Origin: Armatimonadota bacterium
GTDB taxonomy: Bacteria; Armatimonadota; SYMT01
Direction: 5' to 3'
Assembly: GCA_041690135.1 (NCBI GenBank)
Contig: JAWLHY010000022.1
Coordinates: 1-50,099, forward strand
Length of the DNA: 50,099 nt
Made by a program: the position numbers and the translations under genes. The notes under the pieces were generated by a model. It worked only from the letters and a program-made list of their open reading frames with translations, did no database searches and was not told the DNA's origin. Positions 44,083 through 49,981 of this stretch are shown in pieces; position 1 is the first letter of the stretch, and each line of letters opens with the position of its first letter.

Positions 44083-47037
44083 CTAACCGGCGAAGAGCTG
44101 GAGGCGCTCCTCGAGCTTGGCGCGCTTCTCCAGAAGCTCTTGCTGGATGCGGCGCTGCTTTTCGATGATGTCGGCGGGGGCGCGGCTAAGGAACTGCTCG
44201 TTGGACAGCTTGCTTTCCACTCCCTTCAGATCCTTGGCCACCCCGTCCAGCTCTTTGCGAATGCGGGCCTGCTCGGCACTGACATCGACCAAGCCGGCCA
44301 CGGCGACGGCCACTTCCATCCCCGCGGCCACGGTGTGGGCGGCCTGGCCTTCGGGACGCTCGCGGCTGATGCGGGCCTTTGCCATCTGCTCGACGTAGGC
44401 CGTCTCCAGATGACCGTCGCCCATCACCGATACGTCCACCGTCTGGAGCGGCACCCCCAGTTCGGCCTTCAGGTTGCGGATGGCGCGGGTCACCTCGATC
44501 ATGGCGTCCATCCGTGCCTCGGCTTCCTCATCGCGGAGCTCCGCCAGCGCTCCCGGATAGGGTTGGACGATCAACGCGCTCTTCGGGTCCGTTCCGGGCA
44601 GGGCCTGCCAGATCTCCTCCGTGATGAACGGCAGGAAGGGGTGCGCCAGCCGCAGGAACGCTTCGAGCACCGCCACGATCACCTCGCGGACGAGGGTGGG
44701 GTCTTCGCTCCGCAGGCGCGGCTTTGCCAGCTCCACGTACCAGTCCGCGAACTCGTCCCAGAGGAAGTGGTACAGGACCCACGACGCCTCCCCCAACGAG
44801 TAGCGGTCCAGCGCGTCGTTCACGGCCGCCGAGGCCGCCGCAAAACGGGAGAGAATCCAGCGGTCGGCGAGCTCAAGTTGGGGGCCGGAGGTTGGGTGTT
44901 GGGGGTTGGGGGCTGGGGGCTGGGGTTCGGAGGTTCCGAGTTCCGAGTTCTGGGTTCCGGGATTCCACTCACGCAAGAGGAGTCCCAACCGTTGGTCGCC
45001 GAGTATGGCCCCTGGCCCCTGGCCCCTGACCCCTGGTCCCTGGTCTCCGGCCCCTGACCCCTGGCCCCCGGCCCCTGACCCCTGCGAATCGCCGAGGTTC
45101 ATGAGGACGAAGCGGGAGACGTTCCAGAGCTTGGTGCAGAAGTTGCGCATCTGCTCGATCTGCTCGGCGCGGGCCAGCTCGTCGTCGGGACCGGTAGCCT
45201 TGATGCCGCCGGACTTCCAGCGCATTTTGAACCGGATGTCCTGACTGTCCGTTACCAGGCTCGCCAGACCGAACCGGGTAGCGTCGGCTCCGTACAGCCG
45301 GATCAGCTCCAGCGGGTCCACACCGGTGCCGAGGCTCTTGCTCATCCGCTGCCCTTCCTCGGTCATGACCGTAGCATGGACGAGCACCTGCCGGTAGGGC
45401 TCCTTGTCGAGGAACTCCTCGCCGGTCATGATCATGCGCGCCACCCAGAGATAGAGGATGTCGCGCCCGGTGATCATCAGGTCCGTGGGATAGAAGTAGC
45501 CCAGGTCGTCCGTCGCCTCCGGCCAACCCAGGGTGGCATGCGGCCAGAGGGCGCTGCTGAACCAGGTGTCGAGAACATCCGGATCCTGCTCCATCTCAGA
45601 TCCGCCGCAGTGGGGGCAGGTGTCCGGCTTCTCCACGGAGGGGATCGGCTTCACGTCCGAACCCACCTGCAAAGCACCTTTGGAGAGCCGGCTCACGCCG
45701 GAGTCGCACTGCAGGCAGTACCACAACGGGATCCGATGGCCCCACCAGAGCTGGCGGGAAACGCACCAGTCGCGGATCCCCTCCAGCCAATCGATCTCCA
45801 TCTGGCGGAAGCGCTCCGGGGTGTAGTCCACTCGACCGGCACGGATGGCGGCGAGCGCCTGGTCGGCCAGGTCGCGGCAAGCCGCAAACCACTGCAGCTT
45901 GAGCAGCGGCTCGATCACCGTCCCGCACTTGTCGTGATGACCCACGGCGTGTGTGTGCGGCTCGATCTTCACCAGCAGCCCGCGGGCGTCCAGGTCCGCC
46001 ACCACCTTCTTGCGGGCTTCCTGCCGGCTCAATCCGGCGTAGGCGCCAGCGGCTTCCGTGATGGCGCCGGTATCGCCTATCACCTGGATTGGCGGCATCA
46101 ACTCCGGGTGCCGCTGGGCGATGTCCCAGTCGTTGGGGTCATGCGCGGGGGTCACCTTCACGGCACCAGTCCCGAAAGAGGCATCCACGTGGTGGTCGGC
46201 CACCACGGGGATTTCCCGCTCCATCAGCGGAAGGACCACCTTCTTGCCCACCAGGTCGGTGTACCTCGTATCCGAGGGAGCGACAGCCACGCCGGTGTCC
46301 CCCAACATGGTCTCCGGCCGAGTGGTAGCTACCACCACCCCCTCGCCGCCGTCGGCACCCGGGTAGCGGAAGTGCCACAGGTTCGATTGGAGCTCCCGGT
46401 GCTCCACTTCCAGGTCGCTGACCACGGTCTGGCACTGCGGGCACCAGTTGACGATCCGCTCGCCGCGGTAGATCCAGCCCTTCTCGTAGAATTTCACGAA
46501 GGCGGTCAGCACCGCGCGGGCGTAACCGCTGCGCGTGTAGAGCTTACCGAGCGCCCAGTCGGCCGTCTGCGGTCCTTCCTCGACGAACTCGTCCAGAGTG
46601 AACCGGGTGCGGGACCAGTCGTACGAGCAGCCAAGGGCCTGAAGCTGCCGGAGGATCGTGCCGCCGTACTTGAGGGTCCACTCGCGGGCGTGCCCCAAGA
46701 ACTTCTCGCGGCCCATGTCTCGACGGTCGAGACCTTGCGCGCGGAGAGCCTGATCCACCTTCATCTGCGTGGCAATTCCGGCGTGGTCGGTGCCGGGCAG
46801 GCACATCACGTTGAAGCCCTGCATCCGCTTGCGGCGCACGATGAGGTCGTGGATGGTGTGCTGCAACGCATGGCCCATGTGCAGTTCACCGGTAACGTTC
46901 GGCGGCGGAATGGTGAGGGAGAACGGCTGCTTCGCCGGGTCCACTTTCGCCGTGAAGTAGTCCCGGTTGCGCCAGAACTCATACTGCTTCGGTTCAACTT
47001 CCTTGGGTTCGTAAGTCTTTGAGATTTCGGTAGACAT
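44083..47037 (-). CDS. valS: valine--tRNA ligase
   Basis: PPPNVTGELHMGH, PGTDHAGIATQ, ATTRPET, GTGAVKVTPAHD, DWCVSRQLWWGHRIP, DVLDTWFSS, RMSKS, C-terminal coiled-coil arm. Confidence 0.98.
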   Translation of the reverse strand: MSTEISKTYEPKEVEPKQYEFWRNRDYFTAKVDPAKQPFSLTIPPPNVTGELHMGHALQHTIHDLIVRRKRMQGFNVMCLPGTDHAGIATQMKVDQALRAQGLDRRDMGREKFLGHAREWTLKYGGTILRQLQALGCSYDWSRTRFTLDEFVEEGPQTADWALGKLYTRSGYARAVLTAFVKFYEKGWIYRGERIVNWCPQCQTVVSDLEVEHRELQSNLWHFRYPGADGGEGVVVATTRPETMLGDTGVAVAPSDTRYTDLVGKKVVLPLMEREIPVVADHHVDASFGTGAVKVTPAHDPNDWDIAQRHPELMPPIQVIGDTGAITEAAGAYAGLSRQEARKKVVADLDARGLLVKIEPHTHAVGHHDKCGTVIEPLLKLQWFAACRDLADQALAAIRAGRVDYTPERFRQMEIDWLEGIRDWCVSRQLWWGHRIPLWYCLQCDSGVSRLSKGALQVGSDVKPIPSVEKPDTCPHCGGSEMEQDPDVLDTWFSSALWPHATLGWPEATDDLGYFYPTDLMITGRDILYLWVARMIMTGEEFLDKEPYRQVLVHATVMTEEGQRMSKSLGTGVDPLELIRLYGADATRFGLASLVTDSQDIRFKMRWKSGGIKATGPDDELARAEQIEQMRNFCTKLWNVSRFVLMNLGDSQGSGAGGQGSGAGDQGPGVRGQGPGAILGDQRLGLLLREWNPGTQNSELGTSEPQPPAPNPQHPTSGPQLELADRWILSRFAAASAAVNDALDRYSLGEASWVLYHFLWDEFADWYVELAKPRLRSEDPTLVREVIVAVLEAFLRLAHPFLPFITEEIWQALPGTDPKSALIVQPYPGALAELRDEEAEARMDAMIEVTRAIRNLKAELGVPLQTVDVSVMGDGHLETAYVEQMAKARISRERPEGQAAHTVAAGMEVAVAVAGLVDVSAEQARIRKELDGVAKDLKGVESKLSNEQFLSRAPADIIEKQRRIQQELLEKRAKLEERLQLFAG
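44878..45087 (-). repeat. in-frame heptamer cassette in valS (70 codons)
   Basis: About 11 CAGGGGY-like units, a spacer, GAACTCG-like units, then CCCCCAR units. Confidence 0.85.
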
Positions 47038-47047
47038 GGGTGTTTCC

Positions 47048-47316
47048 GTGATACGTGATGCGTGAAACGTGAGGCTTACGTGCGAGGCGGCTGCGAAGGC
47101 AAAGATGCGGCCTCGCACGTGAGCGTGTTGCGTGATGCGTAATTCGTGAGCTTGCGTTCGCGACGACTGCGGAGGCTAGGAAGCGGCTTCGAACTTGAGT
47201 GTGATCCGAGTTGCGTATTTCGTATTGCGTGAGAGCCACGTGCGAGATAGTTGCAAGGGCAGGGATGGTGCCTCGAACTTGAGTGCATTCCGCGTTGCGT
47301 GTTTCGCATTGCGTGA
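47048..47316. repeat. three degenerate ~80-bp units built of TGCGTGA heptamer tracts plus a hairpin
   Basis: Tracts at 47048, 47118, 47211 and 47288; cgaacttgagtg at 47190 and 47274; hairpin gcttacgtgcgagg...cctcgcacgtgagc. Confidence 0.7.
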
Positions 47317-47558
47317 TGTGTAAGGGTCGGGCTCTGGTTGGGTGGGAGGCAGGACGGATAGCTCGGGTTAGGGCAGTTACGCTGCGGTGCCTTTGGTGCA
47401 GCAATTGTTTCGGATCATAGACATCGCAATTGCCAGTCTCCGGTCGGGGGCGGCGCATTGCAACCCATCACCCCTTCGGGGTACCCGGGCGTAGGCCTGC
47501 GCACGAACCGCCTCGGCTGCAGTGCAACTGTAGCCGATCGCGTCCTCCCGAACCGCCG

Positions 47559-47623
47559 CTCATTATCCTTATCCTCATCCTCATCCCAATCGGGCCGAAG
47601 GCCACTTCATCCTTCATCCTTCA
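47559..47623. repeat. hexamer (CTCATC-like) and heptamer (CTTCATC) micro-repeats at the HIT stop
   Basis: ctcattatccttatcctcatcctcatcccaatc and cttcatccttcatccttca. Confidence 0.6.
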
Positions 47624-48036
47624 AAAAGGGGCCGCAGGCGACTGGCCATGGCGGCGCGGGCGGCGGGGGCCACTTCCTCGCCGAACTTGTGATCCATCTC
47701 GTCCCCGTCGTAGCGCGGAACCACGTGCAGGTGAGCGTGATAGAGGCTCTGGCAGGGGGCCTCGTTGTTGAACACGAGCATCACGCCGCACTTCAGGACA
47801 CCGCGCAAACCTGCAGCCATGCGCTTCGCGACGAGGACCATGTGGCAGAGCAGGTCGTCGTCCATCGTGAGGGCGTTCCGCACGTGCTCACGGGTGACCA
47901 CCACCAGGTGCCCCGGGTTAACGGCATGCTGCGCCACCACCACCACGACGCGGTCGTCCCGGTAGACCTCGTCCGCCGCGGCGGCTCCGGCGGCAGTTCG
48001 GCACGCCATGCACTGCTGGAGTTCATTCGCGCTCAT
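47614..48036 (-). CDS. HIT-family nucleotide hydrolase
   Basis: CMAC, VYRDD, NPGHLVVV, NNEAPCQSLYHAHLHVVPR (HxHxHxx triad); SD gaggga before ATG 48036. Confidence 0.92.
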   Translation of the reverse strand: MSANELQQCMACRTAAGAAAADEVYRDDRVVVVVAQHAVNPGHLVVVTREHVRNALTMDDDLLCHMVLVAKRMAAGLRGVLKCGVMLVFNNEAPCQSLYHAHLHVVPRYDGDEMDHKFGEEVAPAARAAMASRLRPLFEG

Positions 48037-48065
48037 TCCTGCTCCCTCGTTTCCAATCGGGCCAG

Positions 48066-48108
48066 AAAAACAGAAAACCTCTTCCGTCCTCCTGAAGGAC
48101 GAAAGAGG
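48066..48108 (-). terminator. T-box attenuator terminator
   Basis: CCUCUUUCGUCCU-UCAGG-AGGACGGAAGAGG followed by UUUUCUGUUUUU. Confidence 0.9.
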
Positions 48109-48334
48109 CGCGCTCTTCCGCGGTACCACCTTCATTCCCCACCCGGCTAACTCGCGGGAAGGGCTCTTCATTCTCGCGTTAACGGGCGAACCCGGGCAGC
48201 ACTAATGGGCGGTAGCCGTTCGCACTGCCGGCTCCGGGGCGACGTTCGGGGCTGCGCAACCGAGGAGAGCTCTCAGCCGGTGACTCTCCCTCTCTGGCGA
48301 TGCAACAGGCGCCTACTCTTCCCCATCCCAGCCT
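48066..48334 (-). promoter_or_regulatory. T-box riboswitch leader, Val specifier (GUC), transcriptional type
   Basis: Minus strand: GAUGGGGAAGAGUA, AGAGAG, GCUGAG loop, GAAC-GUC-G specifier (48241-48243), CCGUUA, AAUGAAGGUGGUACCGCG T-box (48119-48136), antiterminator GAAGG/CCUUC and GCG/CGU. Confidence 0.93.
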
Positions 48335-48352
48335 GTCCAAACTTTCGCCCCT

Positions 48353-48361
48353 ATGTTAACA
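48353..48361 (-). promoter_or_regulatory. possible extended -10 promoter for the T-box leader
   Basis: TGtTAACAT about 20 nt upstream of T-box stem I. Confidence 0.45.
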
Positions 48362-48658
48362 CGCCGCAAACGGTTCCGCCAGGGGTTCACGCAGCCGGAT
48401 CACTGTGCCTATTCTTAAAGGGTTCTTCAGCATGGCTGCCGAGGACCCTATCTGACGAGCCTGTGTCCTCACCGCCCAGGGGCTACGGAAGAATATCGGA
48501 GCCGTTCCGAAATTCATTGCGGATGCGGGGCACCAGCGCCCGCCACGGAATGGAATTCCGTGGCTACTACGGAGTGAAACCCCTCCGGGGTTGGCGTGGC
48601 ACGAGACCGGTTCAAGCCTTCGCAATCACTTTTCTTAACCTGTTAGGACGTACAGTTC

Positions 48659-49981
48659 ATGTTGCTGCTTCAACGCTCTTCACTCGCCGCGTTCTTGCTC
48701 GTTGCGTCGGCCTACGCGGTTTCCGCCGCGGCCCCGGTCCTGCGTCTGCCCACGGCCAGTATCGCACTTACGCCTTCCGGAGCTACGGTCGCTCCCGGCG
48801 CGTCGCTGTCGTTCTCCGCACAGCCCCTGGACCGAAATGGAGAACCGGTACCCGACGTGACGGTCACCTGGAGCAGCAACCGTTCCCGGATCGTTTCCGT
48901 CAACGCCCAGGGCCAGGCCCTCGCCCACGCCGTGGGCACGGCTACACTCACCGCCCGCGCCGGTGGGAAAACCGCAACCGCCGTGGTGTCGGTCGTCAAC
49001 CCTTCCACCTCCGCTGGCCTCGTTGCCGCCAACATCGGCCAGGTTAACCACGTGCTGGTCGACGACGAGTGGGTCTACTGGACAGAGACCAACAGTCGGC
49101 TGGTACGGTTGCGCAAGACGGCAATAACCGGCGGACCCATTTACGATCTCGCAAGCGAACCGTCTCGGACCTCGCAGCGGCTCACGGTCACCTACGTACA
49201 CCTGAAACAAGTGGGGGACGATCTCTACTGGTCACGAGAAACGTTCGGCGCCCTGGATCACTGGAGCATCCGGAAGATCGCGAAGACGGGAGGTCCGGTC
49301 ACCGAGGTCCTCGCCGAGGACATCAGCATCGAGCCGATGCTCGCCACGGGCTGGGCCGTAGCCGGCAAGTACCTCGTGGCCGTGCTGTGGGACCCCAACG
49401 AGCTCGGGCTGCCCAACAATACCCGGGTGGCCGCCTATGATACGGATTCCGGCATCTGGACGCCCGTGCTGCAGGGAAATTATGGTGAGAACTCGGTTCA
49501 CCTTCTGGCGGCAACGGAAGGGAAGGTCTACATTCGCACCGTCACCGAGCAATCCCGCACCGAACTCCTGCTCGCGGATCCAGCCGCGATGCCCAACACG
49601 CACCAGGTTCTACACACGGAAGGGCGACGCGACCCGCGCATCTCCCTGCCCGGTGCAGTCAGTGACACCGAAGTTTTCTACTGGACGCAAGTGAGAGATG
49701 GAACTCGCCTGATGGCGATCCCGCTGGCAGGCGGCACCCCGCGCCCGGTCGTCCGTGGTTACCTCGGACAGGGACTGGTGACGGATGGAACCTCTCTCTA
49801 CTGGGCGCCCCTACAGAAATCGGTCGTGAAGCTTCCAGTGGCGGGAGGCACGCCAACGACGGTGCTGCGGCGCATCGTCTCCAACCCTCCCTTCGGGGGG
49901 CTCGCCCTCGACACGGACAGCCTCTTCCTGGCTCGCATTGAGCCCGGAGGCAAAAGCTCGATCGTCCGGGTCAGCAAGTAG
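48659..49981 (+). CDS. secreted protein with Ig-like (Big_2) domain and putative beta-propeller
   Basis: Signal peptide; VTWSSNRSRIVSVNAQGQALAHAVGTATLTARAGG; repeated D..VYW/LYW blades. Confidence 0.82.
   Translation: MLLLQRSSLAAFLLVASAYAVSAAAPVLRLPTASIALTPSGATVAPGASLSFSAQPLDRNGEPVPDVTVTWSSNRSRIVSVNAQGQALAHAVGTATLTARAGGKTATAVVSVVNPSTSAGLVAANIGQVNHVLVDDEWVYWTETNSRLVRLRKTAITGGPIYDLASEPSRTSQRLTVTYVHLKQVGDDLYWSRETFGALDHWSIRKIAKTGGPVTEVLAEDISIEPMLATGWAVAGKYLVAVLWDPNELGLPNNTRVAAYDTDSGIWTPVLQGNYGENSVHLLAATEGKVYIRTVTEQSRTELLLADPAAMPNTHQVLHTEGRRDPRISLPGAVSDTEVFYWTQVRDGTRLMAIPLAGGTPRPVVRGYLGQGLVTDGTSLYWAPLQKSVVKLPVAGGTPTTVLRRIVSNPPFGGLALDTDSLFLARIEPGGKSSIVRVSK

Follow-up and report, generated by a model that had tools for sequence, protein, structure and literature searches.

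We analysed a window of 50,099 nucleotides (nt) from contig JAWLHY010000022.1 of an Armatimonadota bacterium (assembly GCA_041690135.1), in which a T-box riboswitch, a gene for a hydrolase of the histidine triad (HIT) family, a stretch of repeats and valS, the gene for valyl-tRNA synthetase (ValRS), follow one another on the minus strand from position 48338 down to 44083. In our preferred reading, which we consider likely, a valine-specific, transcription-attenuating T-box leads a unit of HIT and valS, and the hydrolase was recruited into this unit once and retained as an accessory of ValRS. The gene order kept in related soil bacteria hints, as far as sequence goes, that the hydrolase works with the synthetase. 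An original prediction made from the letters of the window had described the same anatomy, that is, the Val T-box with its terminator, the HIT gene, the repeats and valS, and it was correct in every checkable detail; it had explained the HIT gene either as a co-regulated partner of ValRS or as a passenger inserted together with the repeats. The features of the locus are collected in Table 1. The genome of the window (G000) is an assembly of 9.1 Mb in 25 contigs with 65% G+C; the other G codes used below are genomes of the same phylum, and L codes are loci.

Table 1 Features of the T-box–HIT–valS locus, with positions in the window
Feature	Position	Strand	Basis and details
T-box leader RNA, Val-specific	48092..48338	-	RF00230, 88.5 bits, E 2e-19, model positions 1-219 of 219
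Specifier codon GUC (Val), purine G48240 next	48241..48243	-	cmscan alignment, GAA-C-GUC-G at 48247-48240
T-box bulge UGGU	48125..48128	-	sequence read; lies within the T-box sequence
Intrinsic terminator	48064..48109	-	terminator scan; 15-pair hairpin 48109-48077 and U-rich tract to about 48064
HIT-family hydrolase gene, 140 amino acids	47614..48036	-	Pfam HIT (PF01230), 57.3 bits against a cut-off of 21.5
HIT–valS spacer, dispersed repeat elements	47038..47613	.	repeat scans; exactly 576 nt
valS (valyl-tRNA synthetase), 984 amino acids	44083..47037	-	Pfam tRNA-synt_1, Anticodon_1, Val_tRNA-synt_C
Heptamer tandem arrays inserted in frame into valS (approximately residues 651-718)	44877..45084	-	TRF and repeat scans

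The leader and the HIT protein

The leader matched the Rfam T-box model over its full length in the Infernal search, as expected from the predicted complete transcriptional T-box with a GUC specifier and a UGGU bulge, and the same match was returned identically by a search of the whole genome. The cmscan alignment contained Stem I with its conserved motifs, the specifier loop, the F-box CCGUUA and the antiterminator, whose T-box sequence GGUGGUACCGCG (48130-48119) holds the bulge. The default gathering scan of the window was empty because the score lies below the curated cut-off, and the match was found by an E-value scan; the orthologous leaders of relatives scored 58.9-94.4 bits, with 93.2 bits for that of G001. 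The specifier context GAA-N-GUC-G-C was present in all 12 leaders inspected, and terminator hairpins with U-runs were kept in the same 12 through compensatory changes. In G000 the 5' arm of the terminator doubles as the antiterminator's 3' arm, which makes the two structures mutually exclusive, and the U-run stops 27 nt before the ATG of the HIT gene at 48036, where approximately 30 nt had been predicted. The minimum-free-energy fold of the whole leader had a z-score of -0.65, a value that is uninformative for a switch with alternative structures.

G000 has three tRNA-Val genes (GAC, UAC and CAC), and since all three end in ...GCCC-A, their discriminator is A73, which confirmed the predicted compatibility of the bulge with tRNA-Val. 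The UGGU bulge is complementary to the 3' ACCA end of uncharged tRNA-Val, and tRNA-Val(GAC) (G000:C1:709472-709543) with A73 fits both the GUC specifier and this bulge. The Val T-boxes of L040 (G016) and L049 have UGGC in place of UGGU, so G73, or wobble, would be required in tRNA-Val there. According to our preferred reading, the anticodon of uncharged tRNA-Val(GAC) would pair with the specifier and its ACCA end with the bulge, the antiterminator would form, and RNA polymerase would pass the terminator hairpin into a two-gene unit, HIT first and then valS.

One other T-box was found in G000, which makes two in all. It scored 88.8 bits (G000:C13:135397-135757; L001 1501-1861), carries CUC (Leu) as its specifier, is enlarged by two long insertions that together make up 361 nt, and lies upstream of an ilvB-like gene for the acetolactate synthase large subunit. 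The open reading frame (ORF) upstream of that locus (L001 1-375) has a hydrophobic stretch and basic residues at its end, which we take to resemble a PEP-CTERM sorting signal.

The HIT gene has a GAGGGAG Shine-Dalgarno sequence upstream of its ATG, and its product carries the canonical H-x-H-x-H triad as H100-x-H102-x-H104. Alignment of 36 HIT sequences gave 21 columns that were invariant in all of them, including H43, H51, H100, H102 and H104. The AF2 model of the protein had a pLDDT of 93.3, and Foldseek matched it to 3l7x, 1y23 and HINT1 at probability 1.0; taking sequence and fold together, the best matches were the bacterial Hit proteins 3l7x, 1y23 and 3o0m, and then HINT1. Foldseek also matched Fhit and the Mycobacterium tuberculosis Ap4A phosphorylase with TM-scores of 0.59-0.61, which is a likeness at the superfamily level only, and the sequence search of the PDB (30 matches at E ≤ 1e-3) returned HINT1 and bacterial Hit proteins but no Fhit. 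Search of the Protein Atlas returned generic HIT clusters only, which were commonest in Actinomycetota. Two further HIT paralogues lie elsewhere in G000, so the copy before valS can be regarded as an extra, specialised one. A predicted complex of ValRS residues 1-650 with HIT, built from separate alignments, scored 0.00 ("no answer") and counts neither way.

Few of the substrates on which bacterial HIT/Hint proteins act in the cell are known. The HIT protein of this locus would most likely hydrolyse adenylylated compounds, either by-products or mimics of the reaction that ValRS catalyses (for example, released aminoacyl-AMP or AMP-phosphoramidates), when charging of tRNA-Val is low, a substrate range that we infer. 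Another role, in which the hydrolase removes diadenosine polyphosphates (ApnA) as a side product of the induced ValRS, appears improbable to us. Aminoacyl-tRNA synthetases (aaRSs) make Ap4A from aminoacyl-AMP and ATP, and the HIT-superfamily enzymes FHIT and Apa2 degrade ApnA, as stated in the review PMC10148737, and the Foldseek matches to Fhit and the Ap4A phosphorylase fit with such a role. However, the same review places ValRS in the low group of Ap4A synthesis, which weighs mildly against it, the PDB sequence matches point to HINT1 and bacterial Hit instead of Fhit, and the NCBIfam ATP adenylyltransferase model gave 25.7 bits against a cut-off of 290.

Gene order in relatives

For 41 genomes of the phylum, the coordinates of T-boxes and valS were compared. 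Of these genomes, 30 have a T-box (E ≤ 1e-4), and in 20 it lay upstream of valS on the same strand, 15 times directly, four times with HIT between and once (G039) with another ORF between. Because of these 20 genomes, and of the GUC specifier and terminator in all inspected leaders, we regard a Val T-box before valS as the old, common state in the phylum. The HIT gene at this position belongs to a narrow group. A profile built from 36 HIT members was searched against 401 genomes of the phylum and gave strong matches (187-241 bits) in five, all of one order, namely G000, G001, G002 and G006 of one family and G007 of a second family, while the next best match had 101 bits. The orthologue group was also sharply bounded among proteins, with 75 clusters at 52-92% identity and then a fall to 37%.

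The HIT gene lies directly before valS in all five genomes that have the orthologue. The metagenome set comprised 80 HIT-relative loci, seven of which had at least 45% identity to HIT, and valS came right after HIT in six of these seven. A T-box stands ahead of HIT in four of the five genomes (G000, G001, G006 and G007) and also in L041, L042, L043, L045 and L049, the contig of L049 ending just after HIT. L042, L043 and L044 are probably one population (zero branch lengths for L043/L044, equal T-box scores for L042/L043). The comparison of synteny that the original prediction had proposed thus gave a conserved HIT–valS order. The gap between the two genes in relatives ranged from -4 nt in G001, where the HIT stop and the valS start overlap in ATGA, to about 140 nt (approximately 12-140 nt in the others), and the pair was kept down to about 57% ValRS identity.

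Two loci have the pair without a T-box, and the space upstream of HIT is too short for one. In G002 (L035, G002:C425, 690-810), only 116 nt, with a hairpin and a short U-run, separate the end of a DUF1501 gene from HIT; in L046 (1269-1305), the upstream gene is approximately 10-35 nt away, depending on the HIT start. That the leader of G002 had merely been missed was rejected for this locus in view of the nearby DUF1501 gene and of the whole genome (80% complete), in which no T-box was found at E ≤ 1.

This conservation, read from sequence, supports selection for the HIT–valS pairing. Of the two explanations offered originally, the co-regulated partner of ValRS is favoured by the gene order in genomes and metagenome loci, the two loci without a T-box, the ATGA overlap and the invariant catalytic residues, and the chemistry that had been attached to it, clearing of Val-/Thr-AMP or ApnA or detoxification of adenylate analogues, stays a proposal. 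The T-box–valS unit would be old in the phylum, and a single recruitment at the root of one order-level clade would have placed HIT between the leader and valS, where purifying selection would have kept it since then as a ValRS accessory.

Outside the orthologue group, the exact T-box core motif was not found upstream of HIT in the 80 metagenome loci. L065 has near-matches to the T-box core, but cmscan found no T-box in it. A link of more distant HITs to valS or to a T-box was rejected, as tblastn found no valS in L126-L129 and L048, and no T-box was found in L065 and L126-L129. In the other 73 metagenome loci the sole valS-like match was a weak one of 28%, located 3 kb away in L084.

The different arrangement in G039, a genome of another family (L039, G039:C35, 1970-3020), consists of a Val T-box of 94.4 bits, a hydrophobic ORF of 162 amino acids, approximately 290 nt and then valS. 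The ORF is membrane-protein-like with about four hydrophobic stretches, and neither Pfam nor NCBIfam gave a match to it. Upstream, in divergent orientation, this locus has a canonical HinT-like gene and a radical-SAM gene.

Repeats, exceptions and alternative readings

Dispersed repeats make up nearly all of the spacer between HIT and valS; when it was divided into 20-nt bins, a bin had as many as 37 matches elsewhere in the genome. Just past the HIT stop, GGATGA-type arrays flank a hairpin, followed by a middle element and by three tandem units of 76-84 nt (47079-47316), each with a hairpin and TCACGCA-like heptamers; hexamer or heptamer arrays flank hairpins in the spacer. No convincing U-tailed terminator was found in the spacer, the lone weak site being a 5-pair stem at 47118..47105 with the tail CTTTGCCTTC, and the scanned region 46900-48700 had four terminator-like sites compared with 2.0 ± 1.4 in shuffles. 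The predicted distance of 576 nt across repeats to valS, with no evident U-tailed terminator, was thus found as described. Since relatives are without these repeats, the repeats are late and specific to the lineage of this genome, and their insertion would have stretched a formerly tight HIT–valS junction. The suggestion that HIT was a passenger inserted with the repeats was not borne out, because relatives have HIT without them and with gaps of at most about 140 nt, and the repeats came later.

A similar insertion lies in valS itself. The gene was the sole copy found in G000 (one match in the search), and its ATG at 47037 aligns with the starts in relatives. In the insertion, a GGGGCCA-type unit is repeated approximately 11 times and is followed by units of the GGAACYC and CCCCAAC types; the encoded linker is rich in Gly, Gln and Pro. 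The ValRS alignment of most relatives breaks at residues 650-704/719, the site of this insertion, and the arrays have matches elsewhere in G000. Because such an array sits in frame in the single-copy valS, at least some of these repeats are transcribed through.

Several observations weigh against our preferred reading. The T-box score is 4.5 bits below the Rfam curated cut-off of 93. In G004 (90% complete) and G005 (98% complete), which belong to the same family as G000, the T-box is followed immediately by valS, and a search at E ≤ 1e-25 found no HIT orthologue; with HIT dispensable there and lost in two genomes, the gene is not indispensable. An orthologue-like HIT gene in L047 (1981-2421) starts at the gyrB stop, is frameshifted and has no valS downstream. 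The dN/dS ratio was 0.16-0.34 in the 28 HIT pairs without G007 but 0.32-0.77 in pairs with the fast-evolving G007 copy, and all of these values are rough because dS was saturated (0.85-2.2). Within the spacer, hairpins such as that with arms at 47074-47091 and 47107-47124 (89% complementary) could attenuate transcription without U-tails, and one sigma-70-like match (47589..47562, 9/12, with 0.3 expected in shuffles) could be an own promoter of valS.

The arrangement that the original prediction had set against itself, a T-box directly before valS without HIT in relatives, was seen in 15 of the 41 genomes, including G004 and G005. However, in a ValRS tree of 19 rows the order was one clade (100/100) that held the HIT-bearing genomes, and G004 and G005 were nested inside the HIT-bearing clade (97/99), which is therefore read as loss of HIT. 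The T-box-less G002 and L046 were sisters in the same tree (91/92). The simplest reading of these sequences would be a single gain of HIT at the root of the order, its loss in G004 and G005, and one loss of the T-box in the line of G002 and L046.

The spacer raises the question whether in G000 the repeats have split the unit, so that the T-box gates HIT only and a promoter within the spacer drives valS. The spacer is at least about four times as long as the HIT–valS gap of relatives, it contains several stable hairpins besides the sigma-70-like match, and an independent promoter would be tolerated or favoured because valS is essential and single-copy. We nevertheless consider a split unlikely: the promoter match reaches 9/12 only and lies in a dispersed repeat, in a segment that matches 18-26 further places in the genome, a convincing U-tailed terminator was not found in the spacer, the similar array in frame inside valS is transcribed through, and the ancestral state was clearly a tight HIT–valS pair. 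Read-through from the T-box promoter across the repeats into valS would be the ancestral condition and is probably still in place in G000.

It could also be argued that chance brought HIT into a junction, between the leader and valS, that readily takes up insertions, and that its function is unrelated to ValRS. The unrelated membrane-protein-like ORF at the same position in G039 fits this, as do a repeat element of about 480 nt between terminator and HIT in G006, the loss of HIT from G004 and G005 and the orthologue after gyrB in L047. We give such a neutral origin little credence, since the pair was kept to about 57% ValRS identity and even without the T-box in G002 and L046, the genes overlap in G001, the catalytic residues are invariant, dN/dS was mostly in the lower range, and the two other HIT paralogues of G000 make the copy here an extra, specialised one.

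Short tandem arrays are unusually common in G000. Perfect arrays with at least three copies numbered 98 for period 6, 127 for period 7 and 53 for period 8, compared with 6 for period 9 and 1 for period 10. The commonest heptamer was TACGCAA, the unit that is also present in the HIT–valS spacer (for example 47047-47316 and 47555-47613), and hairpins are often flanked by such arrays, which resembles a miniature repeat family. The element in G006 (L034, G006:C156, approximately 585-1040) has (CTAATCC)x4 at one edge and GGAGTAG/GGATTAG arrays at the opposite edge, and holds a match to the Acido-Lenti-1 RNA on the opposite strand (32.6 bits, cut-off 37). G000 had 32 matches to this RNA, 22 of them over the cut-off, and 14 control genomes had none. 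Judged by the name and range of that RNA family, the phylum would be Acidobacteriota, in which attenuators are poorly annotated, but this is an indication and no taxonomic assignment, and the database record gives Armatimonadota. Given the match in the G006 element and the 32 matches in G000, the Acido-Lenti-1 "sRNA" (small RNA) may be part of a mobile repeat.

Novelty and comparison with known systems

Our literature search, which did not reach the two main T-box regulon surveys or any supplements, found no paper that joins T-boxes with HIT or histidine triad proteins. We regard the locus as moderately novel: the T-box and the fold are each ordinary, and their combination is new, conserved and informative. 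Gene order and a tRNA-Val-sensing switch link one HIT subfamily to one aaRS across a whole clade, which results in a narrow hypothesis, namely activity on valyl- or threonyl-adenylate, their mimics or ApnA that is induced by uncharged tRNA-Val. A new gene class would be added to T-box regulons, and the locus would display an evolutionary sequence from HIT gain through alternative loss of HIT or of the T-box to repeat invasion.

The leader agrees with known valS T-box leaders (RF00230; Firmicutes and other phyla) in the full model match, the Val specifier followed by a purine, the UGGN bulge that matches the tRNA discriminator, the competition of antiterminator and terminator, and the aaRS gene downstream. 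According to PMC2494555, no T-boxes are more widespread than those ahead of ileS, leuS and valS. The differences are that the first gene past the terminator is HIT, neither an aaRS gene nor one for biosynthesis or transport, that the score lies just under the Rfam cut-off, and that the host is outside the Gram-positive groups best studied for T-boxes.

Compared with the bacterial Hit proteins Streptococcus mutans SMU.412c (3l7x), Bacillus subtilis Hit (1y23) and M. smegmatis HIT (3o0m), the HIT protein gave phmmer E-values of 7e-18 to 5e-11 and Foldseek TM-scores of 0.70-0.82, and it shares the H-x-H-x-H-x-x triad, an N-terminal CxxC and a C-terminal extension. It differs in having only 24-27% identity to them, in its own conserved P94-C95-Q96 and G111-D112 and in its fixed position before valS. 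With the HinT/HINT1 purine nucleoside phosphoramidases it shares the canonical triad and the N-terminal histidine; the HINT1 match had an E-value of 3.7e-8, and the HINT1 structure 4eqe with the lysyl-adenylate analogue Lys-AMS was among the fold matches. However, it has 140 amino acids with a C-terminal helix compared with approximately 115-126, and the NCBIfam model of Escherichia coli HinT (PRK10687, NF007965) gave 24.3 bits against a cut-off of 206, which indicated that it is no equivalog.

The MccH-type HIT phosphoramidases inactivate processed microcin C, an aminoacyl-adenylate mimic that poisons an aaRS, and have a C-terminal extension that is held to shape substrate choice, as described in PMC7157772. 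The HIT protein here also has a C-terminal extension, but the MccH clade is marked in that paper by H-x-H-x-K, by replacement of the N-terminal His with Phe and by a gained Glu. Because H104 and H43 are retained and invariant, our protein is outside the MccH clade, and no mcc-like cluster was seen beside it. Judged from its sequence, "Hint branch in the wide sense" is a fair description, so the predicted HINT-branch assignment stands in that wide sense, but the protein is neither a HinT equivalog nor of the MccH type.

A bolder reading, which is speculative and in our judgement quite unlikely, would make the locus an antidote circuit, directed against naturally occurring valyl-adenylate mimics that inhibit ValRS. 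The inhibitor would block charging, uncharged tRNA-Val would rise and cause read-through at the T-box, and the read-through would supply both a HIT able to cleave the mimic and additional ValRS, the enzyme under attack. In a related form of this reading, HIT would act in trans to clear mis-activated Thr-AMP released by ValRS when valine is scarce.

The likeness closest to our preferred reading, an accessory gene under a T-box, is with the tRNA-Trp-sensing operon of unknown-function genes in B. subtilis (Sarsero et al. 2000, as cited in PMC2494555), in which a T-box likewise switches on a helper gene. The two systems differ in amino acid, protein family and phylum, and in the Armatimonadota locus the putative helper shares its leader with the aaRS itself.

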